Translations under genes and position numbers: made by a program
In this document: positions 3,150 to 35,685 of the stretch, in pieces
How the letters are laid out: the number at the start of each line of letters is the position of its first letter
Numbering within the stretch: the stretch's first letter is position 1
The notes under the pieces: model-generated
Databases searched by the model: none
What the model saw: only the letters and a program-made list of their open reading frames with translations
Told to the model about the DNA's origin: nothing
NCBI GenBank assembly: GCA_038064195.1
Contig: JBBTTO010000002.1
Span: 269,356 to 333,355 of the forward strand
Origin: Patescibacteria group bacterium
GTDB taxonomy: Bacteria > Patescibacteriota > Microgenomatia > Levybacterales > UBA12049
Direction of reading: 5' to 3'
Length of the DNA stretch: 64,000 bases

Positions 3150-3613
3150 AATGTATTAATTAGCTGTGTCGTTGAGTGGTTGGGCAGGCGGTCGATTACC
3201 TCAACAACCTGTGCCCCGATTTTTTTTGCCTGTCGTATCTTATGGTGAATGGACGGATCACCTTTTGTAGTTGCGATTATAGCAGGTTTGATTGAAGTTA
3301 CAAGCTGATCGTAGTCGTTGTCTTCAAAAGGGAATGGGAGAAGAATGACAAGTCCTGTTGGTGTTGATGATAAAAGGTTCTGTGCTCGCGTGAGTTGCGT
3401 ATTGACGGGGCGTTTTGGACCTTTGCGTTTTGACACTGCCTCATCTGACTCCAGAAGTACTACCAGAGAATCACCTTGTCCCTCAGCAGCTTTGAGAAAG
3501 CTACGATGTCCCGGATGCAGTACATCAAAGCATCCGCCAACAAGGACGATGGTTTTGTCTTCTAATTCTTTTTTAATTTGAGAGACTTGGTCGCTTTGAA
3601 TGATCTTTTTCAC
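3146..3613 (-). CDS. HxGH cytidylyl/adenylyltransferase, RfaE domain II (HldE C-terminal)-like
   Basis: GGCFDVLHPGH nucleotidyltransferase motif, and SDEAVSKRKGPKRPVN matches the heptose-1-phosphate adenylyltransferase / TagD-like pattern. 155 aa. Confidence 0.6.
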   Translation of the reverse strand: MKKIIQSDQVSQIKKELEDKTIVLVGGCFDVLHPGHRSFLKAAEGQGDSLVVLLESDEAVSKRKGPKRPVNTQLTRAQNLLSSTPTGLVILLPFPFEDNDYDQLVTSIKPAIIATTKGDPSIHHKIRQAKKIGAQVVEVIDRLPNHSTTQLINTL

Positions 3614-5153: not shown

Positions 5154-6653
5154 TTGCCTATTTCTATGGACGAAAAAGTTATTTATTCAAGCAAACCAGC
5201 CCAAGCTAGGCCTGAAGCGGCACAACCAACCAATCCTGCTCCGGTCACCCCGCCCTTGTCAGTTCCTCCCTTGCCTCCTTCTTCAGCCTCACCGATAGCT
5301 CCTGCGCCGCCGGTATCACCCGGAACCGAGTTACTGCCTAAGCCGCCTAAAGGGTCTCCCTTAGGCGGTATTCTTAAAATCGGTGGTATTGGAGTGGTTT
5401 TTCTTCTTTTGATTTTCTTAGTGATTCGCTTTGTGGTACCTCTTTTTCATAAGGGACAGACAGAAGAGCTGGTTACTTTGACCTACTGGGGATTATTTGA
5501 AGACAAGAATGTGATGAGTACGATTGTTAATGATTTTCATCGGGAACACCCGTTGATTACGATAAATTATGTCCAAAAAGACATCAAGCAATACAGGCAA
5601 AGCCTGGTTACTCAAATTAATGCCGGCAGCGGTCCGGATATCTATCGCTTTCATAATTCATGGGTGGGGATGATGAAATCTTTCCTATCACCTATGACCT
5701 CAGACGTTATCTCCTCTGAGGAATTTAAGAAAAATTATTATCCCGTGATCCAACAGGATCTCATACGAAACGGAGCTCTTTACGGAATCCCTCTTGAGAT
5801 CGATACGCTCTCACTTTTTGTTAATACAGAACTGTTTGAAGCAGGAGGCAATGCCGTGCCGACTACCTGGGACGAATTTATCCGTGTCGCTAAAGACCGT
5901 GTTGTGAAAGACGGAGACGGAAAAATTCAGACAGCGGGGGCAGCATTAGGCACCTATGACAATATTACTCATGCTGCCGATATCGTTGCTTTACTCATGG
6001 CGCAAAACGGCACGAATTTCAGTAATTTTAGTTCTACCCTCGATAATACCAGTCAAACTCTTCAGTTCTATACTGCTTTTGCGAAAGATGAGGGTAGTGT
6101 TTGGGATAGTACACTTGATCCCTCAATTGTCGCTTTCTCAAAAGGCAACTTAGCGATGTATTTTGGTTACTCGTGGGACATTTTTGCGATTAAAGCCCTC
6201 AATCCTGACCTTAAATTCAGCATTCATCCGGTTCCTAATCTGCCTTCCCGCAAAACGGCAATGGCAAGTTATTGGGTAGAGGGAGTATCAAGTAAAAGCA
6301 AACATCAAAAGGAAGCCATGCTTTTCATGCAATACTTAACTAAGAAAGAAACTCTGCAGAAGCTTTATAGTGAAACAGCCAAAACCAGGCTTTTTGGTGA
6401 GCCGTATCCAAGAGCTGATTTGGCAGGTACTGTCAAAAATAATCCTCTTGTCGCGCCTTTTTTGGAGCAAGCTCCTTACGCAGTGTCTTCATATTTTGTA
6501 AGCGATACCTATGATGACGGAGTTAACTCGCAGATGGATGCGTATCTGGGAAATGCCGTAAGATCAACTCAGGGTAGTGATAGTTCTGTCAAGACAGCCG
6601 TTGATACTCTTGCCCAGGGTGTCAATCAGGTACTCGGAAAATATGGGCAGTAA
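5154..6653 (+). CDS. Extracellular solute-binding protein (ABC-type, family 1), membrane-anchored, Pro-rich N-terminal tail
   Basis: Pro/Ala-rich N-terminus, a single TM (IGGIGVVFLLLIFLVIRFVV), then an SBP-like fold (..LTYWGLFED.., ..AMYFGYSWD..). No permease or ATPase genes are adjacent (orphan). Confidence 0.65.
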   Translation: MPISMDEKVIYSSKPAQARPEAAQPTNPAPVTPPLSVPPLPPSSASPIAPAPPVSPGTELLPKPPKGSPLGGILKIGGIGVVFLLLIFLVIRFVVPLFHKGQTEELVTLTYWGLFEDKNVMSTIVNDFHREHPLITINYVQKDIKQYRQSLVTQINAGSGPDIYRFHNSWVGMMKSFLSPMTSDVISSEEFKKNYYPVIQQDLIRNGALYGIPLEIDTLSLFVNTELFEAGGNAVPTTWDEFIRVAKDRVVKDGDGKIQTAGAALGTYDNITHAADIVALLMAQNGTNFSNFSSTLDNTSQTLQFYTAFAKDEGSVWDSTLDPSIVAFSKGNLAMYFGYSWDIFAIKALNPDLKFSIHPVPNLPSRKTAMASYWVEGVSSKSKHQKEAMLFMQYLTKKETLQKLYSETAKTRLFGEPYPRADLAGTVKNNPLVAPFLEQAPYAVSSYFVSDTYDDGVNSQMDAYLGNAVRSTQGSDSSVKTAVDTLAQGVNQVLGKYGQ

Positions 6654-7518
6654 ACAAGAAGCAATTTTCAGAACTCTCCTCTATAGTGACCTCTTTAACT
6701 GTCCTTTACGTGAAGACGAGCTTTTTTATTATTTAAATACTAAGGAGAAAGTATTGCAAAAAGATATTAGTAAAATTGCCCTCCAAACACCAGGTGTCTA
6801 TAAATGGGAAAGCTGGTATTCGTTGAGGAGAAGTCATCAGGACATTCGAAAACGCCAAGAGAGGATGAGAATATCCCAAGCGAAAATTGCCCTCGCCCAA
6901 AGACTTATCAGGTGGATAACATGGATTCCTTCCCTGTTATTTGTCGGTATAAGCGGAAGTGTCGCAGCCGGGAACGCTCAGCTTAATGATGATATCGATT
7001 TTTTTGTTATTACCCAGAAAGGAAGTTTGTATACTACCCGTTTGTTATTGTTGCTTTTGCTTCAGATTCTTAGAAAGCGACGCAAGCCTCATGAGCAGGA
7101 GGCTAGGAACAAGATTTGCCTCAACATGCTTATTGATGAATCTTCTTTAGCCATACCTGAGAGTAAGCGTACTGTATATACTGCCAGAGAAATAGGTCAG
7201 CTTATGCCTTTATTTGAGCGCCGGGGAACCTATCAGCGCTTTCTGAAGGCCAATGCCTGGGCTAAATCATTTCTTCCTCATATTGGGCGTAAAGGAGATT
7301 GGATATCTTCCAAGGGTAAAGTTTCTCAGAGAAAGACCTTTTTCACTCTTGTGGAGCCACTTACGCGATTTATCGAAATTCGTTATATGAAGAAGCGTCA
7401 GACAGTCGAGCAGGTAAATACTCACTCCATTGCATTTCACCTTAATGATACTGCTGTACGAATTTTACGTCGATATGAGGCGAGACTAAAAACTCTTGAA
7501 TTAACTATGTCAAGGTAG
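6643..7518 (+). CDS. Pol-beta superfamily nucleotidyltransferase domain protein
   Basis: GISGSVAAGNAQLNDDIDFFVI fits the G[SG]x9-13Dh[DE]h NTase signature, with a later acidic LIDES. The internal ATG at 6643 was chosen because the 6577 start would overlap the SBP gene. Confidence 0.5.
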   Translation: MGSKQEAIFRTLLYSDLFNCPLREDELFYYLNTKEKVLQKDISKIALQTPGVYKWESWYSLRRSHQDIRKRQERMRISQAKIALAQRLIRWITWIPSLLFVGISGSVAAGNAQLNDDIDFFVITQKGSLYTTRLLLLLLLQILRKRRKPHEQEARNKICLNMLIDESSLAIPESKRTVYTAREIGQLMPLFERRGTYQRFLKANAWAKSFLPHIGRKGDWISSKGKVSQRKTFFTLVEPLTRFIEIRYMKKRQTVEQVNTHSIAFHLNDTAVRILRRYEARLKTLELTMSR

Positions 7519-20698: not shown

Positions 20699-21199
20699 AT
20701 GGATAAGAAAAAGAAACAACAGGAAGAAGAAAGTTTGGATGTTTCAGAAGAGACAAAAGGGACAGAAGAAGTAGAGAATGATCGCTCGGAACTTGAACAA
20801 AAGTTGGAGGAATCTGAGAATAAGTATAAGAGAGCGTTAGCGGATTATCAGAACCTTGAAAAAAGAATGAAGGATGGACGCATTGAGCTCGTGACATCAG
20901 CCAACAGAGATTTGTTATTGAGATTTTTGCCGATATTAGATACATTAGTATTGGCGCAGCAGCATGCTGAGAATCCGGCATTTAAAGTAGTGATAACCCA
21001 GTTTGAGGAGACATTAAAATCAGAAGGTGCTGTAAAGATTAAGGCAATAGGAGAACAGTTTGACCCTAACTTTATGGAGGTAGTTACAACAGGAGAAGGT
21101 AGAGAAGGAATTGTTATACAAGAAGTACGCCCGGGCTACTTGCTGCATGACAGATTGCTTCGACCGGCACAGGTAATTGTGGGGAAGAAAGATAAGTAA
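20699..21199 (+). CDS. grpE: Nucleotide exchange factor GrpE
   Basis: Acidic N-terminus, coiled-coil (..YKRALADYQNLEKR..) and a GrpE C-terminal beta domain. Confidence 0.85.
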   Translation: MDKKKKQQEEESLDVSEETKGTEEVENDRSELEQKLEESENKYKRALADYQNLEKRMKDGRIELVTSANRDLLLRFLPILDTLVLAQQHAENPAFKVVITQFEETLKSEGAVKIKAIGEQFDPNFMEVVTTGEGREGIVIQEVRPGYLLHDRLLRPAQVIVGKKDK

Positions 21200-21305: not shown

Positions 21306-23195
21306 ATGGCTAAAATAATCGGTATTGATTTAGGTACAACTAACTCAGCAATGGCTGTTATGGAGGGTGGATCACCCAAAGTCATCCATTCGGCAGAAGG
21401 GCGTAATGTCGTCCCCTCAGTTGTCGATCCAAAGACTCACGTCGTAGGGGATGTCGCCAAGCGCCAGCTTGTCTTAAAGCCAAAAGAGACTGTCTTTTCA
21501 GTCAAGCGTCTTATGGGGAAGAAATTCCACGATGAGTCGGTGCAGCGTGACATGAAGTGGCTCCCATACACGGTTAAAGCAGGCAGAGACGACATGGCAG
21601 TAGTTGAGGTCAACGGGAAGACCTATACTCCTCAGGAGATTTCAGCCATGATCCTGCAAAAGATCAAGGCTGATGCAGAAGCATACTTGGGTGATAAGGT
21701 GACGGAAGCAGTGATCACGGTACCTGCTTATTTTGATGACAGTCAAAGGCAAGCGACCAAGCAGGCAGGAGAGATTGCCGGACTGGATGTTAAGCGTATT
21801 ATTAATGAGCCGACAGCTGCTGCTCTTGCTTACGGGCTTGACAAGAAAAATGCCCATATTATTGCTGTTTATGACTTGGGTGGAGGGACATTTGATGTCT
21901 CAATTTTGGAACTCGGAGAGGGAGTTTACGAGGTCAAATCAACAAACGGAGATACTCATTTGGGCGGAGACGACTTTGATCAGGTCATCATTGATTATTT
22001 AGCAGACGAATTTAATAAAGAGAATAATGTCGATCTGCGAAAAGATCCGCAGGCTCTTCAGCGTCTGAAAGAATCAGCTGAGAAGGCAAAAATCGAGCTT
22101 TCAAGCTCACAAGATGCACAAATTAACCAGCCGTTTATTACTCAAGGAGCTAACGGTCCCTTACACCTTACCCTGACACTCACCCGGGCGAAGCTTGAAC
22201 AGCTCGTTGATTCCCTTGTCCAAAAGACCCTCAAGCCGGTTGAAAAAGCACTCAAAGATGCGAATATGACAGCAAAAGACATCGATGAGATAGTTCTTGT
22301 CGGCGGTATGACACGCATGCCGAAAATCGTTGAAACAGTCTCCAAGTTTTTCGGGAAAGAGCCAAATAAATCAGTTAATCCGGATGAGGTAGTAGCAATC
22401 GGCGCAGCAGTACAGGGTGGTGTACTTTCAGGTGATGTAAAGGATGTCTTACTTCTTGATGTAACTCCTCTGACATTGGGTATTGAGACTATGGGTAGTG
22501 TGTCAACACCACTTATTACACGCAATACGACAATTCCTTCATCCAAGTCACAGGTTTTCTCAACTGCGGCTGACAACCAAACACAAGTAGAGATCAATAT
22601 CCTTCAAGGTGAACGTCCGATGGCAGCAGATAATAAGTCTCTGGGTCGCTTTATCCTGGACGGTATCCCGCCTGCACCGAGAGGCATGCCGCAAATTGAG
22701 GTAACTTTTGATATTGATGCGAGCGGAATTCTCAATGTCACTGCTAAGGACAAGGCAAGCGGGAAAGAACAGAGTATCAAAATTCAAGGGTCGACAGGAC
22801 TTTCAAAAGAGGAAGTTGAGAGAATGACTAAGGAGGCAGAACTTCATGCGGCAGAAGACGAAGAGAAAAAAGCAGCAGTTGAAGTACGAAATCAGGCTGA
22901 CTCACTCATTTTTACGGCTGAGAAATCCCTCAAAGACGCAGGGGATAAGGTCGGAGAAGATGTCAAAAAGGAAGTGGAAGAGAAAATAAAAGCTGTTAAA
23001 GATATTTTGGACTCAGGCAGTAAAGAAGATATTGAAGCAAAGACGAAAGATCTTTCGGATTCACTTATGAAAATCGGTGAAGCTATGAATAAGCAGGAAG
23101 AGACCGCGTCAGACGCGGCTGGCGCAAAAGGGACAGAAGGGGCAAAAGATTCAGACGAACCTGTTGAAGGAGAAGTAGTCGATGACGGAAAGTAG
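21306..23195 (+). CDS. dnaK: Chaperone DnaK (Hsp70)
   Basis: [10 protein letters not shown] start and full Hsp70 NBD/SBD signatures. The C-terminal tail carries the [13 protein letters not shown] element. Confidence 0.95.
23103..23141 (+). repeat. 39-nt element shared with clpC-like 3' end (copy 1, inside dnaK tail)
   Basis: ACCGCGTCAGACGCGGCTGGCGCAAAAGGGACAGAAGGG, with the internal palindrome CCGCGT-cag-ACGCGG. It encodes [13 protein letters not shown]. Confidence 0.7.
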
Positions 23196-23553
23196 TCTTG
23201 ATCAAAGCGAATATGATCGTAAGTTTGACGAATTAGATAAAACTGGCCAATTTGCTGCTGAGCAAATCAGAGCAAAATTAGGTGATCGTCCGAAGTCAAC
23301 TCCATTTGCTGTTGAGCCGACCTCAGAGGATACCCCCACTCCTATTATTGAAAAGCCTGCGATAGATCCTTTCAAAGATTATACGAGCGAGCAATTAGCT
23401 GCGGCTCATGAGGCTCTTGCAAGTGGGGAGATAGATAATTTTAATGGCCTCAATCAAGCTGATATTGCGCGTGAGGTCGATAGGCGGTATGAGAAAGAGC
23501 TTAAATCCAGCAGTACTCAAGCACAAGCTGACAGGGATGACGTTGTCCGCTAG
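23182..23553 (+). CDS. Hypothetical acidic protein inserted between dnaK and dnaJ
   Basis: 123 aa. The ATG overlaps the dnaK stop by 14 nt (possible coupling). No recognisable domain. Confidence 0.4.
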
Positions 23554-23575
23554 GTTAATTAGAAGTGATTTTAGT

Positions 23576-23600
23576 ACCTCGAGCTACTCGAGGTTTTTTT
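23576..23600 (+). terminator. Rho-independent terminator-like hairpin
   Basis: acCTCGAGctaCTCGAGGt followed by a T7 run. Confidence 0.55.
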
Positions 23601-23657
23601 AGCAACCAGCCTTCGCCTACACGTATCTAAATGGTATAATGATGAACTAAACTAATT

Positions 23658-24545
23658 ATGGCAGCTACAAATCAAGATTATTATTCCCTCTTAGGTATCA
23701 CCAAGTCAGCAACTGCGGATGAGATAAAAAAGGCGTATCGCAAGTTAGCACTTCAATATCATCCTGACCGTAACAAGACCACGGAAGGCGAGACAAAATT
23801 CAAAGAAATTACCAAGGCCTACGAAGTTCTCTCAGATCCGCAGAAGAAGCAGACATACGATCAGTTCGGTGCGGCTGCTTTTGAGCAAGGTGGAGCAGGG
23901 GCGGGTGGACCTTTCGGAGGACAAGGGAATCCTTTTGGTGGTTTTGGTGGCGGACAGTATACATATACAACCAATGGTCAGGGGTTTGACTTCGGAGGTT
24001 TTTCTGATCCTTTTGAGATCTTTGAGCAGTTTTTTGGAGGGGCATCGCCTTTCGGGCAGAGGGCAAGGCGTCCCGTCTACTCTTTAAGCCTGACATTTAT
24101 GGAAGCAGTAAAAGGAACTGAAAAAGAAATAACAATTGATAACAAAAAACAAAAAATAAAAATTCCCGCAGGTGTGGATAGCGGGACGAGGATGCGTTTT
24201 GATACGTATGATGTTCTCTTCGATGTTGCAACAGATAAGAATTTCCAGCGTGAAGGATCAGATGTCATCACGAGTGAGGAGATATCTTTCCCGCAAGCTG
24301 CTTTAGGCATGCAACTTGAGGTAAAGACTGTCGAAGGTCAGGTAACTGTCAAAATCCCCCCCGGTACCCAACCTGATACACTGATTCGTCTGCGGGGAAA
24401 GGGAATACAGAGATTGCGCAGTAGCAGTAAGGGTGATCACTATGTGCGTATTAGGGTCACGATTCCTAAGACGTTAAGCAAACGTCAGAAGGAACTTCTC
24501 ACAGAATTCGATCAGGATACCTCACAGAAAAAAAACTGGTTTTAG
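23658..24545 (+). CDS. dnaJ: J-domain co-chaperone (DnaJ/CbpA type II, no Zn-finger)
   Basis: J domain ([13 protein letters not shown]), a G/F-rich region and C-terminal CTD I/II. No CxxCxGxG repeats. Confidence 0.8.
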
Positions 24546-24607
24546 TAATTTTTCTGCTACTTTCTAATTGTATTTTTATTCTATTCTCCCTATACTTTTA
24601 TTAATAA

Positions 24608-24624
24608 GCACCGCTTAGCGGTGT
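24608..24624 (+). terminator. Short GC hairpin downstream of dnaJ / in leader of pilin-like gene
   Basis: gCACCGCttaGCGGTGt with a 6-bp stem, then tatttgtgtt. It lies 10 nt before the ATG at 24634. Confidence 0.35.
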
Positions 24625-24633
24625 ATTTGTGTT

Positions 24634-25047
24634 ATGAAAAATGTGCCTGCCCGCATATCCGGTTTTCGGAAAATAATCCAAGCAACTCTTCTTCTCGGGT
24701 TTGTGATTTTGTCTGTAGCTTCTCCCTATCAAGTTCAAGCTGACGCTCCTTCACCTTGTCCGCCGGATCAGGCCATAACAGAGGTTGGCTGTCTACCTAA
24801 AGACCCGATTCAATTCGTAAGCAGTTTTTATACAATCGGGCTGGGGCTTATCGGTGGTGTAGCGTTAATTTTTATAATCATCGGCGGCTATACGATTTTG
24901 ACCTCTCGTGGGAGCCCGACTCAAATTAATATCGGCAGAAGCTATATATTTTATGCAATTTTAGGTCTCCTCCTGGCAATTTTCGGTTATATCTTTATTG
25001 AGGTCTTTGCTATAGACATCTTGCATTTACCAGGCTTTAGTAATTAG
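24634..25047 (+). CDS. VirB2/TrbC-like two-helix pilin-type membrane protein (candidate)
   Basis: 137 aa. It has a long signal peptide ending ..VQA, then a Cys pair (CPPDQAITEVGC) and two hydrophobic helices separated by a short polar loop, which is the classical T4SS pilin architecture. The stop lies 2 nt before the next ATG. Confidence 0.45.
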   Translation: MKNVPARISGFRKIIQATLLLGFVILSVASPYQVQADAPSPCPPDQAITEVGCLPKDPIQFVSSFYTIGLGLIGGVALIFIIIGGYTILTSRGSPTQINIGRSYIFYAILGLLLAIFGYIFIEVFAIDILHLPGFSN

Positions 25048-25048
25048 T

Positions 25049-28000
25049 ATGAAAAAATTTATAGCTGGTTTAGTCTTCCTGGCAATTGTATGTTTGGCAG
25101 CGAGTTCTTCACCTATTGTTTTTGCGGCTGATCCAATTACTACAGGAGTAACCGGATTAGGCGTGGGAGCTGCCGCGACACTACCGGCCGACGGGTCGTG
25201 GATTACAGACCCTGAGGTAACTAAGGTTGGTAAGAACGCCGCCCGGGCAGGTATGTTACTCGATTGGACATTGCGGGACTATCAATGGTCTTTTGTTAAA
25301 AATGGAGATACCAATCCCTTAATTCCTTTTTGGTTGACGATGCAGCGAATTGTCTATGCACTCTTCCTTTTTGTCGTGCTGGTCACAGCTTTTATTTTAA
25401 TTGTCACAAGAGGCAGGAGCCTGTCAGCCAGACGTTTTCTTCCCCGCTTTTTCATGGTCGTTCTTCTGGTCACGTTTTCATTTTCGCTGGTTCAATTTCT
25501 CTATCAGATTATTGATATCTTCCAAGGGTTCTTCCTTAAAAATCCTCAGGGGAATATTATCTCCTCACGTGATCTTCTCTATGTCGGATTTGACTATCAA
25601 TCTTTTCAGGGGTTACGCGTATTCGGGCAGTCTTTTGATGAGTCAGCTTTAATCTCACTCCTTCTGGTCAAACTTACGTCATTTACGTACTACGTCATGG
25701 TCATACTGCTTATTTTCAGAAAAATCATTTTGTGGTTTTTTATCATTATTTCACCCGTTTTCCCGCTGCTGCTTCTTTTTTATCCTCTGCGTAATACTGC
25801 CAAAATTTGGGTGGGGGAATTCTTCCGTTGGCTGCTCTACGCTCCGCTTTTTGCAATTTTCCTGTCAGGACTTGTTAAGTTGTGGCAGACCAGCCTGCCT
25901 CTTCTTTTTAACTTTAGTAAGGTAAGTGATCCGAGTACTGTTGTTTATCCGACCGCTGTTAACATCCTGCTGGGTGGTCCGCAGCAGCATATTTCTCAGG
26001 TAAATTCGGTTAATCTCCCCGACACATTCGCGTTGTATGTAGTGGCACTCATTATGCTCTGGACAGTAATTATTTTGCCTTTTATTCTGCTGCAAATCTT
26101 TCTTGACTACTTTATGTCTGTAAATTATCGGGATAATCCACTCCTCAAACAAGTCTATACACTCATGAATAACAGGCCGCTTATTCCTCCGCCTCTTCCT
26201 CCGGGATCTCCCGCACCTGCCGGACAGGCCGGACTTGCGAGAACCTTACCGCTTGTAAGAAGGTTTGAAGGGCCTAGGACAACAGGTCTTATGCAGTCCA
26301 TTCCGACGAGTACAAGTATCTCACAGCAGCAACAAATTACTCGTCCGGTGACAACAACGATCAGTAACCAGACGCAAGTATCCCGTTTGACAAATCTATC
26401 TATCCCGACCATGCGGGATATTGCACGCTTTGAGAAAGAAAAATTAAGCAACCGATTGGCATCCCAACAGGAAATAGAGCGTGTTAAATCGACGTTACTC
26501 CAGATTGCTAATCCCCTGAGGACTTCGACTTCAAAAGAGCGTGAGCGATATCAAAGTGTGCGTGAGCGTCTTGTGATTGAGGGGCAAAAAGGCAATCAGA
26601 CAGCCACCAACATACTCAATGCGGCAACTACTTATAATACCTATCATTCAGTCTTTAAGCCAAGTCAGAGCAGTCAGTCAAGTCAACAGTTCATTCAAAA
26701 CCTGGCAAATCCCGAGAAAATCGTTGACAAGACAGAAAAAGAGAAGATTGTCCACATTCGTGAGCAGATACAGTCTGCAGCAACTACCGGCAATGAGCTG
26801 GCAAAAGTAGTACTCAATGCCATTACTCAGACCACGACGACCAGAGTTACAAGCCTGCAGGAGACTCTCAAGGAGCTTTCCCATCCTGAGAAAGTCGTTG
26901 ATGAAAAGCAAAGAGAACAATACACTTCACTTCGCGAGAAAATCAGTCAGGCCAGCACAGCAGGTAACCCGCTCGCACAGCTGGTAGTATCCTCACTTGA
27001 GAAATCAACCTCACCCGTTGAGGTAAAAATGATTCAAACAAAACTCCTTGAAGCACAGGCAGAGGGCAACCCCTTAGCAACAGAGATTCTGACAACAGTA
27101 ACGAGTAAAGAATCAACAAGTCAGGAGCAACTTAAAGAAGTTCAGACCAAATTAGAAGAAGCAAATAGAAAAGGAGATCCGTTAGCAGCTGTTTTGCTAC
27201 CTCTTCTCACCTCACAGAGCGTAAAGCAACAAGAAGCTCCTGTCTCGGCGGCTGCCAAACTCAAGACGGGTGCGTTCCCGGTCGTGAATCGTGTTCAGCA
27301 GGTCTCACTTGACGATTATGAAGCAGTAAAAAAGATGTGGAAAGAGAATTATCAGAATCTGGAAGTCCCCCAAGACATAACTGGACAAAAAACCCGTAAA
27401 CAATGGATCACCTCAGATATTGCAGATATAGAGCAGACAATCAGCCTGCTAACCTCATCAAATCCAACTGAGGTTGAAGAAGGCATGAAACAGGTCTCAG
27501 ATATTTTGCCCTTTCTGTTGATCGGAGGCTTTTCGCAAACCGAGATTATTGCTTATCTTAAAGCGAAGATGGAGGCGGGTAAGCAAGTTGCCGAAAGTAT
27601 CGGTTCCAGAGAGGAGGAAGAAGAGACTCTCCTCAATGCCGCACATGCTGCTAAAGCTGCCACATCACATATGACAACCAGTATGCAAGTAGACGAAGAA
27701 AGTTCGTCAAGCAGCTCAGTGTCTGAATCACCTACGATTACTAATAACTTTACGACTAATAATCATTATGCAACAACAGTTATACAGCCGGTGAGTTCCT
27801 CGACCGGTACGTCTCTTCTCCACTTAGCTCAGCTTCCGCTTATTACTATGCGGGATATTGTCCAATTTGAGACAACTCAGGGTTCGGCCAAAGAAACGAC
27901 TGAAGTAAAAAAGATTCAGGCGACACTCTCCGGGATATCAAATCCCGAGCAGCTGGCTTCAAAGGAGGAACGGGATCGTTTTGTCAAACTGCGACAAGAG

Positions 28001-29872
28001 ATCGTAGCGGAGAATCGCAAAGGTAATCCACTTGCCGAGATGATCCTGGCTGCATCACTCATGAGTGTCTCGGGTAAGAAGCCTAGTACACAACTGCTGC
28101 CCAAGGGTCGGGTCCCTGTTTTGCCTAAGCAGAACAGGCTTCAACAAGTCTCCCTTGAGGATTATGAAGTGGTCAAGAAAATGTGGGAAGACAATTACAG
28201 TTTACAATCTTCCCAAGCGGGCAAGACAAAGGAAGAATGGCTGAAGGATGATCTCAGATCGATAAGTGAGACTATTAATCTGCTTTCTTCAGAGAATGAG
28301 CAGGATATCTCCCTGGGGATGGAGAAAGTCGGTGAGATACTGCCTTTCCTGTTACTCGGAGGTTTTTCCAAGCAAGAGATTGTAGGCTATCTTAAAGCTA
28401 AAATGGAGGCCGGTAAAACAGTTTTGTCCCGTGTCGAGTCAGCAACTGAAGATAATGATCTCCAACAGGTTGTGACAGGCAAACAGGTTAAGACGGTCAA
28501 TGCTGAGGCAGTCGAGCTACCTACGCCTGAATCTGAGGACGCTACTTTTGAGACAAAAGATCTTTCTCAAGACAGGGGGAGTCTGCCTGCGCAAGTGAGA
28601 CTGCCGCTTCCTTCTCTTAAAGATATAGCCGTCCTTGAAACCCACCAAGCCTCAGGATCTCAATCACTGAATGAGTTACTCCAGACACTTAGCAATATCG
28701 TTTCTCCCGAGCGGATCAAAGATAAAGAGGAGAAGGAGAGGACTACTTTATTGCGGGAGTCTCTGGTCAAGCAAGCAAATAGTGGTGATGTGATTGCACA
28801 AACTATATTAAATGCAGCACGAGGGACGGGAAGCAGTGTCAAGCAGTCATCACGAGACGATGTCAGTCAATTTTTGCTTACTCTTCGTAGCGTTTTTGAT
28901 CCATCGCTGGTTGAAAATGTGACTACCCGTCAGGACTATACCACAACGCGGGATATGCTGGCCAAAGCAAGGCAAGCAGGTTCAGACATTGCAGTTACTC
29001 TTATGCGCCTGGTCGATACTGTTTCACATGAAGAAAATGAAGCAATTATGAATATGCTTCATTTGGTAGGCAATCCCGCACAAATCGTTGACGAGAAAGA
29101 AAGAGCAAGGTACACAGAATTTCGGGGAACACTTGAAAAAGAAGCATCCCGTAGTACATTGGCTGCGATGATACTGCAAGCGACAACAGGTGATATCTCA
29201 CCTGTGAGCGCGAATAAAATACGCGTCCAGCTTCTTGAAGCAAGTATGAAACAGGAGCCTCTTGCTACGAGTATTACTAATAATTTTATTACTCTCCCCC
29301 AGTCAACCATACTTGAAGCAAGAAGTACGTATAAAGAGGTGACTAAAAAAGGAAGCAAAGATCCGCTCGTCACAGCTCTTATCCGACTTCTCAATAAACA
29401 ACCGGTAAGTAGCAAAAATAGACGCACGCTTCAATTCCCCCAACAAAACAGAACACAAAAAACGTCAGTTGATGATTATGAAGCTATAAAAAAGCTGTGG
29501 TATGAAATGTACGTTCATGGTCAGGTACCAAAAGATAGTAGTGGGGAAGAACAGACACGGGAGGAGTGGGTCGCACTGGACAAGAAAGACGTTGAGGAAG
29601 TGATTAATTTATTGTCTTCTGATAACCTTGGTAACCAACAACTAGGCATGGAGCGGGTCGGGGACATCCTGCCTTTCCTTTTGATCGGAGGCTTTTCTCA
29701 AGCTGAGGTTATTGATTACTTGAAAGCCAAAAGGGAAGCAGCGGTGATCGCTCTCCAGACATTGACTGCCAGTCAACCCGAACTGGTTGATAGGCCTTCT
29801 GAAAAAAAAGGACCGGTATTGCAAAGCGCTCAGATACAACAATCTGATACGGTCTCAGACAAAGATGAATAA
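25049..29872 (+). CDS. Giant VirB6/TrbL-like polytopic membrane protein with 1250-aa nested-repeat C-terminal domain
   Basis: 1607 aa. A signal peptide is followed by 5-6 TM helices in the first ~350 aa. A hydrophilic region follows with three super-repeats, each containing ~40-aa NPExIVDxxE[KR]E..LRE..G[ND]PLA..IL modules and a ~95-aa [ST]V[SD]L[DE]DYE..KKMW...ILPFLLIGGFS..YLKAK domain. Confidence 0.5.
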   Translation: MKKFIAGLVFLAIVCLAASSSPIVFAADPITTGVTGLGVGAAATLPADGSWITDPEVTKVGKNAARAGMLLDWTLRDYQWSFVKNGDTNPLIPFWLTMQRIVYALFLFVVLVTAFILIVTRGRSLSARRFLPRFFMVVLLVTFSFSLVQFLYQIIDIFQGFFLKNPQGNIISSRDLLYVGFDYQSFQGLRVFGQSFDESALISLLLVKLTSFTYYVMVILLIFRKIILWFFIIISPVFPLLLLFYPLRNTAKIWVGEFFRWLLYAPLFAIFLSGLVKLWQTSLPLLFNFSKVSDPSTVVYPTAVNILLGGPQQHISQVNSVNLPDTFALYVVALIMLWTVIILPFILLQIFLDYFMSVNYRDNPLLKQVYTLMNNRPLIPPPLPPGSPAPAGQAGLARTLPLVRRFEGPRTTGLMQSIPTSTSISQQQQITRPVTTTISNQTQVSRLTNLSIPTMRDIARFEKEKLSNRLASQQEIERVKSTLLQIANPLRTSTSKERERYQSVRERLVIEGQKGNQTATNILNAATTYNTYHSVFKPSQSSQSSQQFIQNLANPEKIVDKTEKEKIVHIREQIQSAATTGNELAKVVLNAITQTTTTRVTSLQETLKELSHPEKVVDEKQREQYTSLREKISQASTAGNPLAQLVVSSLEKSTSPVEVKMIQTKLLEAQAEGNPLATEILTTVTSKESTSQEQLKEVQTKLEEANRKGDPLAAVLLPLLTSQSVKQQEAPVSAAAKLKTGAFPVVNRVQQVSLDDYEAVKKMWKENYQNLEVPQDITGQKTRKQWITSDIADIEQTISLLTSSNPTEVEEGMKQVSDILPFLLIGGFSQTEIIAYLKAKMEAGKQVAESIGSREEEEETLLNAAHAAKAATSHMTTSMQVDEESSSSSSVSESPTITNNFTTNNHYATTVIQPVSSSTGTSLLHLAQLPLITMRDIVQFETTQGSAKETTEVKKIQATLSGISNPEQLASKEERDRFVKLRQEIVAENRKGNPLAEMILAASLMSVSGKKPSTQLLPKGRVPVLPKQNRLQQVSLEDYEVVKKMWEDNYSLQSSQAGKTKEEWLKDDLRSISETINLLSSENEQDISLGMEKVGEILPFLLLGGFSKQEIVGYLKAKMEAGKTVLSRVESATEDNDLQQVVTGKQVKTVNAEAVELPTPESEDATFETKDLSQDRGSLPAQVRLPLPSLKDIAVLETHQASGSQSLNELLQTLSNIVSPERIKDKEEKERTTLLRESLVKQANSGDVIAQTILNAARGTGSSVKQSSRDDVSQFLLTLRSVFDPSLVENVTTRQDYTTTRDMLAKARQAGSDIAVTLMRLVDTVSHEENEAIMNMLHLVGNPAQIVDEKERARYTEFRGTLEKEASRSTLAAMILQATTGDISPVSANKIRVQLLEASMKQEPLATSITNNFITLPQSTILEARSTYKEVTKKGSKDPLVTALIRLLNKQPVSSKNRRTLQFPQQNRTQKTSVDDYEAIKKLWYEMYVHGQVPKDSSGEEQTREEWVALDKKDVEEVINLLSSDNLGNQQLGMERVGDILPFLLIGGFSQAEVIDYLKAKREAAVIALQTLTASQPELVDRPSEKKGPVLQSAQIQQSDTVSDKDE
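26390..29760 (+). repeat. In-frame coding super-repeats (3 units of ~1.2, 0.6 and 1.16 kb) within giant protein gene
   Basis: Repeated ~95-aa domains lie at ~27300-27590, 28148-28425 and 29465-29745. Nucleotide blocks are conserved (e.g. gattatgaagc/tggt..aaaatgtgg; ctgcctttcctgtt..tcggaggcttttc). The ~40-aa helical modules recur 8 or more times. Confidence 0.7.
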
Positions 29873-29947
29873 AGACTTGCTCTTTTTTGGGAATTTGTAT
29901 TAAATAAAAGTGTACCCATATCGGGTGGGGGATTTTATCTATAAAAT

Positions 29948-32734
29948 ATGTTAGGAAATTTATTCAGCTCCCATAAAGACGAGAGGTCAATGCCGACTGA
30001 TCAAGCTCAACCTATGAACGATGATTCAACAGCAACTAATTCTCCGTTCCCACAGGATACAAATACCTCCTCACGAATGGATCCTGTCTTTCGTCAAAAT
30101 ATGTCTGCTCTCTCGCATTTAGACGCGAGGACTACGCAAGTGCTTCATCATGCTCAGGATGAGACAAAAAAGATCAGACAGGCACAAATCGAACCGGAGC
30201 AGCTACTCCTCGGGCTCCTCTACGACGAGGAGGTATTTAAGCTCTTTGAAGGATTTAATGTGGATGTCGCAAAGCTTGCTAAGGAGATTCAGAGTAAAGA
30301 ACAACTCGGTAACAGCACGACGCAGCCAACACTCAGCAACGCGACAACTGAGATCTTTGAGGCAGCATATAGAGATTGTAGAAATAGAAATGTCAGCTTC
30401 ATTTCACCTGAGGATCTTGTCGTCGCTCTCTTTGGTAGTGGCGGAAGGCTCGCGCAAAATCTATCTGAGAAAGGTATTAAGAAAGAGGCAATTAGTGAAA
30501 AACTCTCCAAGTCTGCGACTTATACAACCGGTAAGAAATCTATCCTTCAGGAATACGGCATTGATCTCACTGAGGAAGCCAAAGCAGGTAAACTGGATCC
30601 GATTGCCGGCAGGGACAAAGAAATTGATCGACTTGTTCACATACTTCTCCGTCGAACAAAAAACAATCCGATTATCATCGGTGAGGCAGGAGTAGGTAAG
30701 ACAGCAATTGTTGAAGGACTTGCTGAAGCAATTGCATCAGGGAGTGTTCCCGGGGGTCTCAATGACAAAAAGATTTTTCAGCTCGATCTAGCAGCTCTTG
30801 TCGCGGGCGCAAGTCATCGGGGGGAATTTGAAGAACGCCTTAAGGGTGTTATTAATGAAACAATAGCCTCACAAGGTCAGATCATACTTTTTATCGATGA
30901 GATCCATACATTGATCGGTGCAGGAGACACCGACGGGACGCTTGATGCTTCCAATATTATAAAGCCTCACTTAGCAAGGGGGCATATGCAAATCATCGGT
31001 ACTACAACAACTGCTGAATATCGTAAGCATTTTGAGAAGGATAAAGCCTTTGAGCGGCGTTTTCAGCCAATCTTAGCTGATGAGCCGAGTGAAGAGGCAG
31101 CAGTCGAGATGCTTAAAGTGCTTCGTCCTAAGTATGAAAAATTCCACAGTGTCACCATCCCTGATGATACATTGGTAGCTGCGGTTAAGTTATCAAAGAA
31201 ATATATCGGTGAGCGCTACCTTCCCGACAAAGCTGTGGATCTTATTGATGAAGCTGCAGCTGATGTGAAATTAGGCAGGACTGTAGTTAAAGAACAAAAA
31301 TCAGAGAATAATGATCAAAAAAAAGATAGCAATCTGGACGGTAACGGAATATCTGACTCACAGCAATCATCTTCACGTGCTACCGGTAATGAGGTTGTGA
31401 AATCAGATATAGAGAAAGTGGTCAGCAACTGGACAGGGATTCCCATCACCAAATTGACTGAGGATGAAAGTCAAAAACTCTTAAAACTTGAGGATAAGAT
31501 CCATGAGCGGCTTATTGATCAGGAAGAAGCTGTGACTGCTGTTGCTGAGGCAGTGAGGCGGGGAAGAATCGGCTTGGCTCCTGCCAACAGACCGATTGCT
31601 TCATTTGTTTTCTTAGGGCCGACAGGGGTAGGTAAAACTGAGTTGGCAAAATCTTTAGCTGAGTTACTTTTCGGTCGTGATGATGCTCTTATCAGACTTG
31701 ATATGAGTGAGTATATGGAAAAACATGAAGTAGCTAAGCTCATCGGTGCACCTCCCGGGTATGTAGGATATGAGGAAGGTGGTCAGTTGACTGAGGCAGT
31801 TCGGGCTAAGCCTTACTCAATTGTCCTCCTTGATGAAGTCGAGAAAGCGCATCCTGATGTCTTTAATATCTTACTTCAGCTCCTTGAGGACGGTCGTCTG
31901 ACTGACAATAAAGGCAATACGATTTCTTTTAAAAATACGATTGTTATTTGTACATCAAATATCGGTAGTGCTTTAATCCAACAACAATTAAGCGAGAAGG
32001 ATACAGGAGCAGCAACTACGCAGGAAGCTTTCAATGAGCAATTTGCTGAGCTTGCAGGCATGGTGACGACTGAACTGCGAAAATTCTTCCGACCTGAACT
32101 TCTTAATCGCTTTGATGATGTGGTCATATTTAAGCCGCTTCGCAAAGCTGATATGAGTAAAATTGCTAAGTTAGGGATTGCCAAGACAGCCAAACTTTTG
32201 GAAGAACAGGGGTATCATGTCCAGACGACAGACGGAGCGCTCGCAGAGTTGGCAAAAGAGGGGTACGATCCTGTCTATGGCGCGAGACCTCTTCGCCGCC
32301 TCATCCAGACAGCAATCGAAAACCAAATTGCCATGCTCTTAATTGCCAAACAATTTGTCCCTGGGGACACTATCGTTATTGATTATGACGCTGCAAAAGG
32401 GGCTTTTGCTTTCAGTAAGGGGAGCGGACAAAGTTTGGAAGGGACCGCGTCAAACGCGGCTGGCGCAAAGGGGACAAATGGGAGTGAAGCGGAAGCTGTT
32501 TCAGACGGGATGAATTCAAGCGACGATGCTACCCCTCAGTCTCCCGTTGCCGGAGCTGGGGAAGCGATGGCGCTTCCTGAGGAGACAAATGAGACACAAG
32601 GATCAAATGGGGCTCAACAGTTTGCCACACCTGATTTCAGTCCACCCTTTATGAAAACTGATGATACACAAACGAACGGTAATATGAATGCAGCCTCAAA
32701 CGGTATGGCCTCATCCTCAACTGCGACAAATTAG
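29948..32734 (+). CDS. ClpC/ClpA-like double-AAA+ Clp ATPase (both modules intact) with low-complexity C-terminal tail
   Basis: Clp_N repeats; D1 Walker A GEAGVGKT and Walker B FIDEIH; D2 GPTGVGKT / LLDEVEKAH; a short middle region with no long ClpB M-domain. The C-terminal ~110 aa are Ser/Ala/Gly/Asn-rich. The start codon is uncertain (several in-frame ATGs). Confidence 0.8.
32444..32482 (+). repeat. 39-nt element shared with dnaK 3' end (copy 2, inside clpC-like tail)
   Basis: ACCGCGTCAAACGCGGCTGGCGCAAAGGGGACAAATGGG, 35/39 identical to the dnaK copy and in the same reading frame. It encodes [13 protein letters not shown]. Confidence 0.7.
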
Positions 32735-32938: not shown

Positions 32939-33271
32939 ATGACTGCCTACCTTTTCTTGCCTATCTATTTTTTGGAGTTTTGGTTTGGTCAGGCTCCTTT
33001 ACGTCTTATCAGCCACTTTATAAAGATAAATCAGGCTTTTTTCCAGTTTTTCTCGGTGCCTTTACTTTTACGGACATTTTTCAGGCCAGCAAAGAACGAA
33101 TACAGAAAAGGTTTAATCGGTTTTTCAATCGGGATCGGCATTTTTTTGAAAAGTTGTGTTATTCTTACGGCTTTACTCCTATTTATCCCATTACTCCTGA
33201 GTGAAGTTATCCTGTTTTGTGGATTTTTGACCTTTCCGCTTATTACGTTAGCAGTCTTGCTTTGGAATTAA
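32939..33271 (+). CDS. Hypothetical small polytopic membrane protein
   Basis: 110 aa with 3-4 TM helices. The stop is 2 nt before the ATG of the membrane-anchored Clp paralog. Confidence 0.4.
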   Translation: MTAYLFLPIYFLEFWFGQAPLRLISHFIKINQAFFQFFSVPLLLRTFFRPAKNEYRKGLIGFSIGIGIFLKSCVILTALLLFIPLLLSEVILFCGFLTFPLITLAVLLWN

Positions 33272-33273
33272 CT

Positions 33274-35685
33274 ATGGATTATCATCTTTTAGCTTTTTAC
33301 AGTTTTTATAGGGCTTCGGGAGTTCGTCTTCTTCGCGCATTTGTTGCGAGTGGACTTTGCCTACTCATCGTCATTGGTATACTCGGGAGATTTTCTCCTT
33401 CATTTCCGCTTTTTCTTCTCAATATTCAAATCATGGTGGAAATTTTCTATCGCTACTATGTCTCAACCAGACAATCGACAAAGACAATTCAGGAAGTAGA
33501 TGAGTCAAATGTACTTCACGCAGTAACACTTCCTGCTATGGCAACACTCAGACAGAGTCGAACAAGTGCCGAGACGTTAAAGCGGCTTTTAACTTTTCCT
33601 CAGGTTGAATTTTTTCTCGCCCGATCAGGTATTAGCAGAAATGAATTGCCAATAAGTGAGATGGGAAATGCAGTTCTCCCGCAATTTGCTTACAAATTAG
33701 CTAAGGAATTGGGCGGTAAATATGTGACCACTATGGATCTTATGGCTGCCTATATATTACTTGAGGAAGAGAGAGCCCATTTACTTGTGAAGAAGAATCT
33801 GCAGGAAAAGGACATTTTGCAGATATTACGTTGGGCAAGATCAGCATATCCCGAGGAAGAACGACCCCGGTCTTTTGAAATAACAGTTGGCGGTGGAGGA
33901 ATTGGAGAATGGTTGGCAGTAGGTTGGACACCCGAGACGGCAGAATTTACTCGCAATTTTACCTATGAGATAACAAGTGATGATGTATCAATTGTCGGTC
34001 GTGAGGAAGAATATGAAAGACTGAAAGAAGAATTATTAAAGCTGGAGAATAATAACGTTGTTCTTATCGGAGAAGCAGGGGTCGGGAAAGAACAGCTGGT
34101 AAGAAAGCTGGCAATTGATTGTTATAAAAATGCTCTTGATCATGCTTTAGGTTATAAAACAATACTGGAGCTATTGGTCGGATCACTACTTGCAGGAGCG
34201 ACCTCTCAGGGAGAGCTTGAAGAACGGGTTAAGGCAATTATTGATGAGATATCTCATGCCGGTAATATTATCCTTTATATTCCCGAGTTCCAGGATATGA
34301 TCGGCGGTAGTAGCTTCTCACTTGATCTTTCAGGGGCACTTGCTCCCTATATGAAAGACGGTCAACTTCCGGTTATTGCCACCATGACTGAGGGGAACTA
34401 TAAAACCTATTTTGAGAAGAGTTCACTTCACGAACTCTTCTCACCCATTACTCTTAATGAGCCCACCCCTCAGCAGGCGGAAATAATGGTGATGGAAAAA
34501 ATAAGTGAGATTGAGAAAAACCAAAATTCGATTGTAACCTATGCTGCCCTTAAGATAGCTACTGAGTATGCCGGAAGATATACTCAAAACCTGTCACTTC
34601 CCGGGAGCGCGATTGAACTATTAGCTGATGCTATAAGTTCCTTACATGATACTAAAGACGCCGGTTTTTATGATAAAACACAAAAGCGTTTGCTGACAGA
34701 TACACTCGTCCTCAAAACAATTGAAGGAAGGACAAAGATAGCCTTATCTGAGCCCTCAGACAGCGAAAAAACATTATTACTGCATTTAGAAGATAGGCTC
34801 CATCAATCAATTATCGGACAGGATGAAGCCATCACTGTCATAGCTGAGGCTATGCGACGTCTCCGTTCAGGGGTTGAATCTGTGAACAGGCCAATTTCGT
34901 TTCTTTTTTTGGGACCGACAGGAGTCGGTAAGACAGAGACTGCCAAAACACTTTCCAAAGTCTACTTTGGCGGTGAGCAAAATATGATCAGACTCGACAT
35001 GAGTGAATATGCTGAACTAGATGGTCAAAAGCGTCTTTTGGGTGCACTTCCCGGGCAGGGGGAAGAACGAGGTGAGTTGACAGAAAAAGTTCGTGATCAT
35101 CCTTATTCATTGATATTGCTTGATGAATTTGAGAAAGCTCATCCTTCTATTTTGAGCTTGTTTCTTCAAATCCTTGATGACGGGCGAATCACCGATAACA
35201 AAGGCCGTACTATCTCATTTATAAATACAATTATTATCGCTACCTCCAATGCAGGATCTGAATATATTCGTGAGGCAGTAGAGAATGGCAAAGCAAGTAC
35301 CCCTACTTTTACCAAAGAGCTGTTAACGTACTTGCAGGAGCAAAATATTTTCAAACCGGAGTTACTCAACCGTTTTGACGGAGTCGTCACATTCCATCCT
35401 TTGACAGAACCTGAGATTGAAAAAGTGACCGCGATACTTCTTCGGGATCTGGCAGAAAAGATGCAGGAGAAGAATATTTCTCTTACCTATGCAAACAGTG
35501 TTTTCAAAAAAATTGCTCATGAGGCATATAATAAAGAGTTCGGTGCCCGTCCGATCAGGAGATACTTACAGGGGACGATAGAAGAACTTCTCGCGCAAGG
35601 TCTACTACAGAACAGTATTCACCATGGTGATCAAGTAACAGTTGACGTTGATAATAACAATAACTTTGTAATTGAGGGGAAATAA
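33274..35685 (+). CDS. Membrane-anchored Clp-family double-AAA+ ATPase with degenerate first AAA module
   Basis: Two N-terminal TM helices and a Clp_N-like domain. D1 Walker A is GEAGVGKE (Thr replaced by Glu) and Walker B is ILYIPEFQ (DE replaced by PE). D2 is intact ([12 protein letters not shown]; LLDEFEKAH; sensor region). The start was set at the ATG after the upstream ORF's stop. Confidence 0.7.
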   Translation: MDYHLLAFYSFYRASGVRLLRAFVASGLCLLIVIGILGRFSPSFPLFLLNIQIMVEIFYRYYVSTRQSTKTIQEVDESNVLHAVTLPAMATLRQSRTSAETLKRLLTFPQVEFFLARSGISRNELPISEMGNAVLPQFAYKLAKELGGKYVTTMDLMAAYILLEEERAHLLVKKNLQEKDILQILRWARSAYPEEERPRSFEITVGGGGIGEWLAVGWTPETAEFTRNFTYEITSDDVSIVGREEEYERLKEELLKLENNNVVLIGEAGVGKEQLVRKLAIDCYKNALDHALGYKTILELLVGSLLAGATSQGELEERVKAIIDEISHAGNIILYIPEFQDMIGGSSFSLDLSGALAPYMKDGQLPVIATMTEGNYKTYFEKSSLHELFSPITLNEPTPQQAEIMVMEKISEIEKNQNSIVTYAALKIATEYAGRYTQNLSLPGSAIELLADAISSLHDTKDAGFYDKTQKRLLTDTLVLKTIEGRTKIALSEPSDSEKTLLLHLEDRLHQSIIGQDEAITVIAEAMRRLRSGVESVNRPISFLFLGPTGVGKTETAKTLSKVYFGGEQNMIRLDMSEYAELDGQKRLLGALPGQGEERGELTEKVRDHPYSLILLDEFEKAHPSILSLFLQILDDGRITDNKGRTISFINTIIIATSNAGSEYIREAVENGKASTPTFTKELLTYLQEQNIFKPELLNRFDGVVTFHPLTEPEIEKVTAILLRDLAEKMQEKNISLTYANSVFKKIAHEAYNKEFGARPIRRYLQGTIEELLAQGLLQNSIHHGDQVTVDVDNNNNFVIEGK

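Follow-up and report, generated by a model that had tools for sequence, protein, structure and literature searches.

A 64,000-nucleotide (nt) stretch of a Patescibacteria contig (JBBTTO010000002.1, positions 269,356 to 333,355; hereafter the window) carries a short GC-rich direct repeat in the 3' parts of dnaK and of a gene for a Clp-family ATPase (clp), both copies of which are read in frame and contain a perfect hairpin. We consider it probable (about 0.6) that these stretches of 39 or, in the extended match, 46 nt are copies of a very small palindromic repeat which is tolerated in frame, resembles REPs (repetitive extragenic palindromes) and the Rickettsia palindromic elements (RPEs) and forms a family in Levybacteria-like Patescibacteria. 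The features concerned are the following, L185 denoting a sister genome:

23096 to 23141, plus strand: copy A of the 46-nt direct repeat, GGAAGAGACCGCGTCAGACGCGGCTGGCGCAAAAGGGACAGAAGGG, identical to copy B at 41 of 46 positions and invariant in six assemblies.
32437 to 32482, plus strand: copy B of the 46-nt direct repeat, GGAAGGGACCGCGTCAAACGCGGCTGGCGCAAAGGGGACAAATGGG, identical to copy A at 41 of 46 positions.
23104 to 23118, plus strand: hairpin core of copy A, CCGCGT-CAG-ACGCGG, with a perfect 6-bp stem.
32445 to 32459, plus strand: hairpin core of copy B, CCGCGT-CAA-ACGCGG, equal to the family consensus; the same 15-mer is present at more than 100 low-GC public loci.
23104 to 23124, plus strand: 21-nt unit of copy A (hairpin plus CTGGCG), its borders ambiguous by 1 nt, missing from the L185 dnaK alignment.
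32445 to 32465, plus strand: 21-nt unit of copy B, missing from L185 clp.
21306 to 23195, plus strand: dnaK, 629 aa (Pfam HSP70, E = 3e-256), with copy A in its low-complexity C-terminal tail.
29948 to 32734, plus strand: Clp-family double-AAA+ ATPase, 928 aa (Pfam Clp_N, AAA, AAA_lid_9, AAA_2, ClpB_D2-small), with copy B in its long C-terminal tail.

Direct reading of positions 23103-23141 against 32444-32482 gives 35 identities in 39 nt, and the match extends to 41 of 46 nt if 23096-23141 is compared with 32437-32482. Such a match is unexpected by chance (0 of 100 dinucleotide shuffles), and the 64-kb window contains two copies only. What a preliminary description of this DNA had reported of the pair, namely near-identity over 39 nt with four differences, an in-frame position in the tails of dnaK and the clp-like gene, a perfect CCGCGT-N3-ACGCGG hairpin and a GC content above that of the surroundings, is borne out: the translations place copy A in the frame of dnaK and copy B in that of the Clp ATPase gene, the hairpin is present in both copies, and their GC content amounts to 0.64-0.67 compared to 0.44 for the window. 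The four mismatches of the 39-nt pair (G/A, A/G, G/A and A/T) split the adenines between both copies. A template/variable pair of a diversity-generating retroelement was considered and rejected since the differences are not adenine-specific and the match is too short. As DNA, the 46-mers form the hairpin at -9 to -11 kcal/mol (z = -2.6 to -3.8), with -10.7 kcal/mol (z = -3.8) for copy A; as sense-strand RNA, alternative pairings compete with it. Both copies are unchanged in the assemblies L001-L005, which derive from several samples, and L006, which covers the dnaK copy alone, has it unchanged as well. A hairpin-like sequence at 61164-61181, AACCGTCTGACGGTC, lies inside rpoB at the motif NRLTV and has the core CGTCTGACG in common with the element. 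It was rejected as a third copy and is best read as chance, a 9-mer core being expected about once per window.

As judged from codon usage and orthologues, the conserved entity is the nucleotide string and not the peptide. Neither the most similar DnaK orthologues (95% and about 90% identity) nor any of the 39 closest Clp orthologues whose tails were examined have the motif. It is present in the distant DnaK tails of L007, L008 and L009, which were chosen by peptide only and read ETASNAADANG, EPASNAADAK and ETASSAADTNG, with the codons of the window, ACC/CCC GCG TCA AAC(AGC) GCG GCT GA. The four-fold degenerate sites of these three dnaK genes are merely 29-33% identical to those of the window, so that synonymous sites are saturated, and the probability of ASNAA being encoded with these codons is about 7e-4 at the local usage (GCG 0.15, TCA 0.34, AAC 0.29, GCT 0.31). 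In the sense frame the unit translates into (T/S/P/A)-ASNAA-(x-A), the residue ahead of the motif varying between T, P, S and A (ACC, CCC, TCC, GCC) while its CC bases stay fixed. The AAGAKGT part of the peptide is found in this genome only. Conservation of the peptide among relatives, to which the preliminary description had drawn attention, holds for some distant DnaK tails, with the same codons, and fails for the closest DnaK and Clp orthologues.

A scan of a genome collection with the pattern GCGTCANNCGCGGCTGNNNCAAA yielded 55 loci. About 40 of these are from high-GC genomes, have random letters at the free positions and were taken as chance matches. In contrast to these, which vary at the positions concerned, all 13 low-GC loci (GC 0.36-0.46) agree in an AA at the loop positions left free and in a G in front of CAAA, and in 12 of them CC stands directly 5' of the pattern; with the fixed free positions and the upstream CC the full palindrome is restored. 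According to their record titles, six of the 13 are Levybacteria or Levyibacteriota, three are Microgenomates or Patescibacteria and four gammaproteobacterial, which is at odds with the composition of these four. L034, L041, L045 and L047, titled Lysobacterales or Gammaproteobacteria, have a GC content of 0.38-0.40 and the Levybacteria-type hairpin in K/E-rich tails, the host in L047 being ribosomal protein L17; they are probably Patescibacteria contigs assigned to the wrong bin.

A metagenome scan with the 18-mer gave at least 120 matches. Among the 120 listed, 33 are high-GC, are distributed over all frames and were set aside as chance; the other 87, all low-GC, reduce to 84 if each distinct site is counted once. 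Of these 84 listed low-GC sites, 46 are read in the sense ASNAA frame of long open reading frames (ORFs), 13 are antisense (AAFDA), 6 lie in other frames and 19 are non-coding, which places about 77% of the copies inside ORFs. Altogether, the identical 15-18-mer occurs at more than 100 low-GC loci of the public scans, in other organisms and other genes. With regard to further copies, a search for which the preliminary description had proposed both as DNA and as peptide, they were found for the nucleotide string, whereas AAGAKGT was found in this genome only. The antisense copies lie on the C-rich strand and orientation is independent of GC skew, so that it appears to be set by coding compatibility; orientation by replication strand is ruled out by the same copies. 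A phage origin was rejected, as the two viral-contig matches have a GC content of 0.63 and random frames and are attributed to chance.

The family consensus reads nCCGCGTCAAACGCGGCTG; CTG normally stands after its core hairpin, CCGCGT-CAR-ACGCGG. The inner half of the stem (CGT/ACG) is conserved together with the loop, which is CAA or CAG, and covariation is seen in the outer three base pairs. Covariation was assessed on 28 sites with a CGTCARACG core, the searched-for CCG/CGG stem being excluded; at 17 of them the outer stem is different yet fully complementary (about 1.6% expected by chance), the alternatives being CCA/TGG, ACA/TGT, TCG/CGA, GCA/TGC, GGA/TCC and AAA/TTT. Among the six two-mismatch variants of the 18-mer, four are exact compensatory pairs. 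The CCACGT...ACGTGG variants change the peptide (A to T, A to V) with the stem kept. Many non-coding copies are doublets in which a hairpin with a CAA loop is connected via CTG to an inverted hairpin with a TTG loop; 34 such doublets were found (both strands counted), their stems covarying independently of each other. When 16 doublets are aligned, both partners vary in 7 of the 12 base pairs and pairing is kept in 96% of the cells, a paired fraction and a covariation score which were reached by 0 of 500 shuffles, with all slid controls lower. By these comparisons the hairpin of the window pair belongs to a dispersed family of structured repeats in Levybacteria/Microgenomates. Of the three explanations offered in the preliminary description, it is the small structured nucleic-acid element tolerated in frame which gains from this, given the same nucleotides in other genomes and genes, the covarying stem and the existence of non-coding and antisense copies. 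The explanation by a shared recognition or sorting peptide is not supported, since the closest orthologues do without it, codon identity goes beyond any peptide constraint, stem variants alter the peptide while keeping the hairpin, and some copies, described below, replace helix residues inside folded enzymes.

Coding copies are mostly situated in disordered extensions of housekeeping proteins and outside the Pfam domains in each listed host; the hosts comprise about ten different DnaK tails, the SSB linker (three loci), S2, L3, L4, L17, NusA and an IS66 transposase. For some non-coding copies the start coincides exactly with the CC behind the tRNA discriminator, some reverse-complement copies end at tRNA position +1, and others are located within tRNA-like genes, between D-arm and anticodon stem. 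Two CCACGT...ACGTGG variants take the encoded tRNA CCA into their stem, and one copy lies inside an insertion of about 1.1 kb in a 23S rRNA gene. Decayed copies exist as well, for example in L009.

Several of these loci are peculiar in themselves. The 23S rRNA gene of L074 (2022-6023, minus strand) measures 4002 nt compared to 2925 nt for the model; its alignment breaks near model position 1945, the insertion holds a hairpin doublet (3353-3370), and L182 has the same flanks. In L134 (about 676-930) and L174 (around a tRNA-Pro at 772-847) a tRNA-Pro(TGG)-like outer gene is split just after the anticodon by about 110 nt, which comprise a complete inner tRNA-Pro(TGG) between complementary GAAATGA/TCATTTC arms; the outer gene has a hairpin doublet between D-arm and anticodon stem, and the layout is conserved in two metagenomes. 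L080 contains, at about 200-270 and right after an intact tRNA-Ile (270-342, minus strand), a partial second tRNA-Ile(GAT) which is devoid of the 5' acceptor strand and has a 35-nt hairpin doublet between D-arm and anticodon stem. In L028, a doublet (CCACGTCAAACGTGG-CAG-TCGCGTTTGACCCGA, about 6455-6490) occupies the spacer between rpsS (6111-6395) and rplV (6513-6863), and a single unit is present in the C-terminal extension of L3. Other recurrent peptides which resemble translations of GC-rich repeats are SSGQA, LRQAQGQ, ARNASQSDAGG and IRNPKHE...NSKSK, the last around the L057 hairpin; loci of such peptides are L077 and L161 (Rpe), L045, L057 and P0122/P0157 (Clp tails). Taken together, these peptides suggest that candidate-phyla genomes contain several small in-frame repeat families.

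Comparison of filled with empty sites indicates how the unit was acquired. The DnaK of L185 is 96% identical to that of the window, with 65% identity at four-fold sites, and L185 has both dnaK and clp, each lacking the unit. Its dnaK is uninterrupted at the insertion point (GAGA^CAAAAGGG; in longer context ...CAGGAAGAGA^CAAAAGGGGCT...), while its clp reads ...GAGACAAAAGGGACAGATGAG... and, at the insertion point, ...GAGGAGA^CAAAAGGGACAGATGAG... As L185 is empty in both genes, the window must have acquired 21 nt (CCGCGTCARACGCGGCTGGCG) in each of them, at a target-like sequence common to the two. A third comparison concerns the DnaKs P0117 and P0068, whose cores are 96.8% identical and which differ by exactly the 15-nt hairpin at AAGA^CAGATGAT. 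All three are clean in-frame indels of 21, 21 and 15 nt, hence multiples of three, and each insertion point has the sequence A^CA and lies in coding DNA which is purine-rich and of low complexity. Element-bearing DnaKs are interspersed among relatives which do not have the element. A further empty counterpart is found in the window itself:

20747 to 20768, plus strand: 'empty-site' paralogue in the N-terminal region of grpE, GAAGAGACAAAAGGGACAGAAG (EETKGTE), a 22-nt exact match to the dnaK tail minus the 21-nt unit.

This EETKGT module is missing from L185 grpE, but the clp tail of L185 has its 17-mer. On the 3' side, the dnaK copy is flanked by sequence closer to the native clp tail than to L185 dnaK, and copies A and B differ by 11%, which is below the four-fold-site divergence from L185. 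Copying between low-complexity tails thus probably explains the similarity beyond the hairpin core. Short ectopic copying would spread the EETKGT module among grpE, dnaK and clp, the hairpin unit may have entered the module after the split from L185, and the second gene would have been reached either by a short ectopic gene-conversion tract, probably with clp as donor and dnaK as recipient, or because the unit inserted a second time at this target. Gene conversion between the tails, as proposed in the preliminary description, is hence a probable explanation for the clp-like 3' flank and the 22-nt grpE match, yet conversion alone leaves the origin of the hairpin unexplained.

If the element is an in-frame palindromic repeat, as we prefer to read it, its copies would persist where the added peptide is harmless, that is in disordered tails and linkers, at non-coding spots next to tRNAs and in the rRNA insertion. 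Their mobilisation might proceed as single-stranded DNA and by an enzyme of the HUH or REP-associated tyrosine transposase (RAYT) type that recognises the hairpin, which is a guess. A number of observations weigh against this reading. No transposase is encoded between neighbouring copies, where the inspected loci (L028, L053, L092 and L102, with flanks of about 10 kb) contain ribosomal and housekeeping ORFs only. The density is low, with two copies per 64 kb, and the 7-12-mers of the element occur in the window at the counts expected from a second-order Markov model. A minority of copies are in place, which means that native helix residues are replaced and the codons of the unit are not added: in DprA, TARRAADQ has become TASNAAEQ, PyrB is altered likewise (18-mer), and by inspection Rpe, CarA, transketolase and mevalonate-diphosphate decarboxylase harbour in-place copies too. 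Diverged orthologue pairs both retain such a copy, which fits homogenisation or selection better than insertion followed by decay. The precise tRNA-end junctions and the incorporation of CCA into the stem hint at a function rather than at pure selfishness. Furthermore, the sense-frame bias is weak evidence since it could largely be a codon-compatibility effect, and most copies stem from exact-match searches, which inflates their apparent conservation.

Several of these points would be accommodated if the hairpin were a functional RNA or single-stranded DNA stem-loop signal kept by selection, the main alternative, which we regard as doubtful. Its fixed UCAAA/CAA loop would be read by a Patescibacteria protein, and coding sequences would have taken up the hairpin in all places at which ASNAA is tolerated by the protein. 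Transcript processing, stabilisation and pausing are candidate roles, for instance at tRNA 5' or 3' ends or in the segmentation of operon mRNAs. Such a signal is consistent with an invariant loop and inner stem next to a covarying outer stem, with exact tRNA-end junctions at which CCA...TGG stems absorb the encoded CCA, with the doublet between rpsS and rplV in a ribosomal-protein operon, with PyrB and DprA copies which add none of the unit's codons and are kept in diverged orthologue pairs, and with hosts that are mostly housekeeping genes, for which high expression is expected. It is hard to reconcile with the patchy presence among very close relatives and with decayed copies such as that of L009. 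Moreover, 13 of the listed matches are antisense to ORFs and the non-coding copies follow no orientation rule, no Rfam family matches the hairpin (the window gives no match, and in 20 element-bearing loci the matches are confined to tRNA and rRNA), and a location some 80-250 nt upstream of the stop codons of dnaK and clp has no obvious regulatory logic. A CIRCE operator of HrcA or any other known RNA was rejected on the same ground, there being no Rfam match in the window. In a wider version, which we hold just as tentatively, the hairpin is a lineage-wide signal of Levybacteria-like organisms, tied to tRNA ends and to genes expected to be highly expressed, with its loop read by a putative dedicated protein. 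The roles conceivable in that case, e.g. tRNA 5'/3' processing sites, recombination or priming, and an active copying into genes which overwrites helix residues of PyrB, DprA and further enzymes, are equally speculative.

It is unlikely that the element is a double-stranded DNA recognition motif maintained by molecular drive or protein binding, such as an uptake sequence or a chromosome-organisation site of the parS or Noc-binding-site (NBS) kind which accumulates in place inside genes. In-place copies in conserved enzymes, one of them DprA, the occurrence in both orientations irrespective of GC skew and the conservation across the lineage would suit such a motif, and the variant loop CGTCTGA resembles the core of the Neisseria uptake sequence. 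However, two copies per 64 kb without any sub-word enrichment are far too sparse for an uptake sequence, the compensatory stem changes indicate intrastrand pairing rather than two protein half-sites, and neither the asymmetric conserved loop with its CTG tail nor the clean 15- and 21-nt insertions are in line with it. Uptake-sequence-like enrichment was also considered separately and rejected, sub-words of the element being at expected counts in the window.

Very improbable, and largely refuted, is a private accident, i.e. a single ectopic conversion or replication slippage between the two chaperone tails with no wider meaning. The closest relatives do lack the repeat in both genes, and the EETKGT module common to grpE, dnaK and clp demonstrates that such copying happens; but the identical 15-18-mer at more than 100 low-GC loci of other organisms and genes and the presence of the element in DnaK tails of distant relatives speak against it, and conversion alone does not provide the source of the hairpin. 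We give hardly any credence to (T)AS(D/N)AAGAKGT being a short linear motif or peptide tag by which one and the same partner recognises DnaK and Clp: although both hosts are chaperones with the motif in frame in disordered tails, most coding copies are in the ASNAA frame and DnaK tails are strongly over-represented among the hosts, the closest orthologues lack the motif, codon conservation exceeds that of the peptide, the residue ahead of the motif is T, P, S or A over a fixed CC, compensated stems alter residues, copies are antisense, non-coding, tRNA-flanking, in rRNA or buried in the PyrB and DprA folds, and AAGAKGT is restricted to this genome.

Among known systems, REPs and RPEs occur inside ORFs in frame, with the proteins likely still functional (PMC3733652), and REP stems measure 8-9 bp (CGTC) or 5-13 bp (GTAG) (PMC3733652, Di Nocera et al. 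2013). With the Rickettsia elements, of which RPE-4 and RPE-6 are CGTC-type REPs, the present element shares the character of a small palindrome which is read in frame, leaves ORFs intact and occurs as singles and dimers (PMC3733652). Further likenesses are the reduced genome of a host-dependent bacterium and copies in RNA genes (tRNA-like genes, 23S rRNA insertion). It differs from the RPEs in its unit of 15-21 nt, whose stem has 6 bp and whose loop has 3 nt, in lacking any sequence similarity to them, in the mostly intragenic position of the retrieved copies and in its hosts, which belong to another phylum and are, by record titles, Levybacteria or Microgenomates and not Rickettsia. RPE-1 is about 100-150 bp long, and we know of no report of RPEs abutting tRNA ends precisely.

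To the REPs and REPINs (paired REP units) of the GTAG and CGTC super-families it is similar as a short GC-rich stem-loop with occasional intragenic copies, whose stems vary between subfamilies around a short fixed motif and whose units are often arranged head-to-head in pairs forming a larger fold, as in the 34 doublets described here. In contrast to these, it has no terminal unpaired GTAG or CGTC tag, CGTC here being within stem and loop, and its tail is CTG or CAG and not CCA-like. Its unit is 15-21 nt with a 6-bp stem compared to the usual 20-40 bp of a REP unit, and about 77% of the 84 listed sites are in ORFs whereas REPs are mostly extragenic, downstream of ORFs and high in copy. Local density is low, and no RAYT is seen among the ORFs between nearby copies at the inspected loci, which have flanks of about 10 kb. 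Since it has no terminal tag, is shorter and is mostly intragenic, the element appears related in kind to the REP and RPE families but is not a member of them.

The GC clusters of yeast mitochondria, GC-rich palindromes of about 30-50 bp in an AT-rich genome, are found in intergenic regions, in rRNA genes and in frame in VAR1 and are polymorphic in presence and absence, as is the element described here; a different mobility has been proposed for them. They differ as longer, unrelated sequences of a eukaryotic organelle. The DNA uptake sequences (DUS) of Neisseria and the uptake signal sequences (USS) of Pasteurellaceae are lineage-wide oligonucleotides which accumulate in place in tolerable frames, often as inverted hairpin-forming pairs; they attain a density of about one per kb, need no covarying stem and do not form clean 15- or 21-nt insertions. 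The present element differs in all three respects, with about one copy per 30 kb, a covarying stem and clean insertions. In the literature searchable here, nothing relevant on REP-like elements or uptake sequences in Patescibacteria was found, nor any prior description of a REP-like element in this phylum.

Within the window, the two host genes belong to the order hrcA, grpE, dnaK, orf123, dnaJ, a gene similar to type IV secretion system (T4SS) pilin genes, a TrbL-like gene (1607 aa), clp and a second Clp-like gene. The 123-aa ORF (23182-23553, plus strand) overlaps the end of dnaK, stop codon included, by 14 nt and has no Pfam match; L185 and L009 likewise have a predicted ORF at this place between dnaK and dnaJ, of 134 and 244 aa, respectively. 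The 1607-aa ORF between dnaJ and clp (25049-29872, plus strand), whose Pfam TrbL/VirB6 match is weak, includes a 96-nt coding repeat in three diverged versions (70-75% identity) at 27481-27576, 28315-28410 and 29644-29739. It is preceded by the T4SS-pilin-like ORF (24634-25047), and the pair is kept in the relatives L185 and L187. The second Clp-like ATPase (33217-35685, plus strand; 822 aa, TTG start) lies 0.5 kb 3' of the first; its Pfam match is strong for the second AAA+ module alone (AAA_2, ClpB_D2-small), the N-terminal half giving weak P-loop matches, and the two-Clp gene pair is found in L187 as well.

For the annotation of candidate-phyla proteins, the element accounts for a class of puzzling 'motifs' in common, which could be misread as functional tags or as homology. 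The element itself is a compact sequence marker of its lineage and as such exposed the probable mis-binned contigs. The exact junctions with tRNA ends, together with the copies in 23S rRNA and tRNA-like genes, indicate that there is RNA-processing or mobile-DNA biology still to be explored. More generally, the repeated addition of ASNAA-type peptides by a hairpin of 15 nt suggests that elements acting at the nucleotide level shape the proteomes of these ultra-small, host-dependent bacteria.

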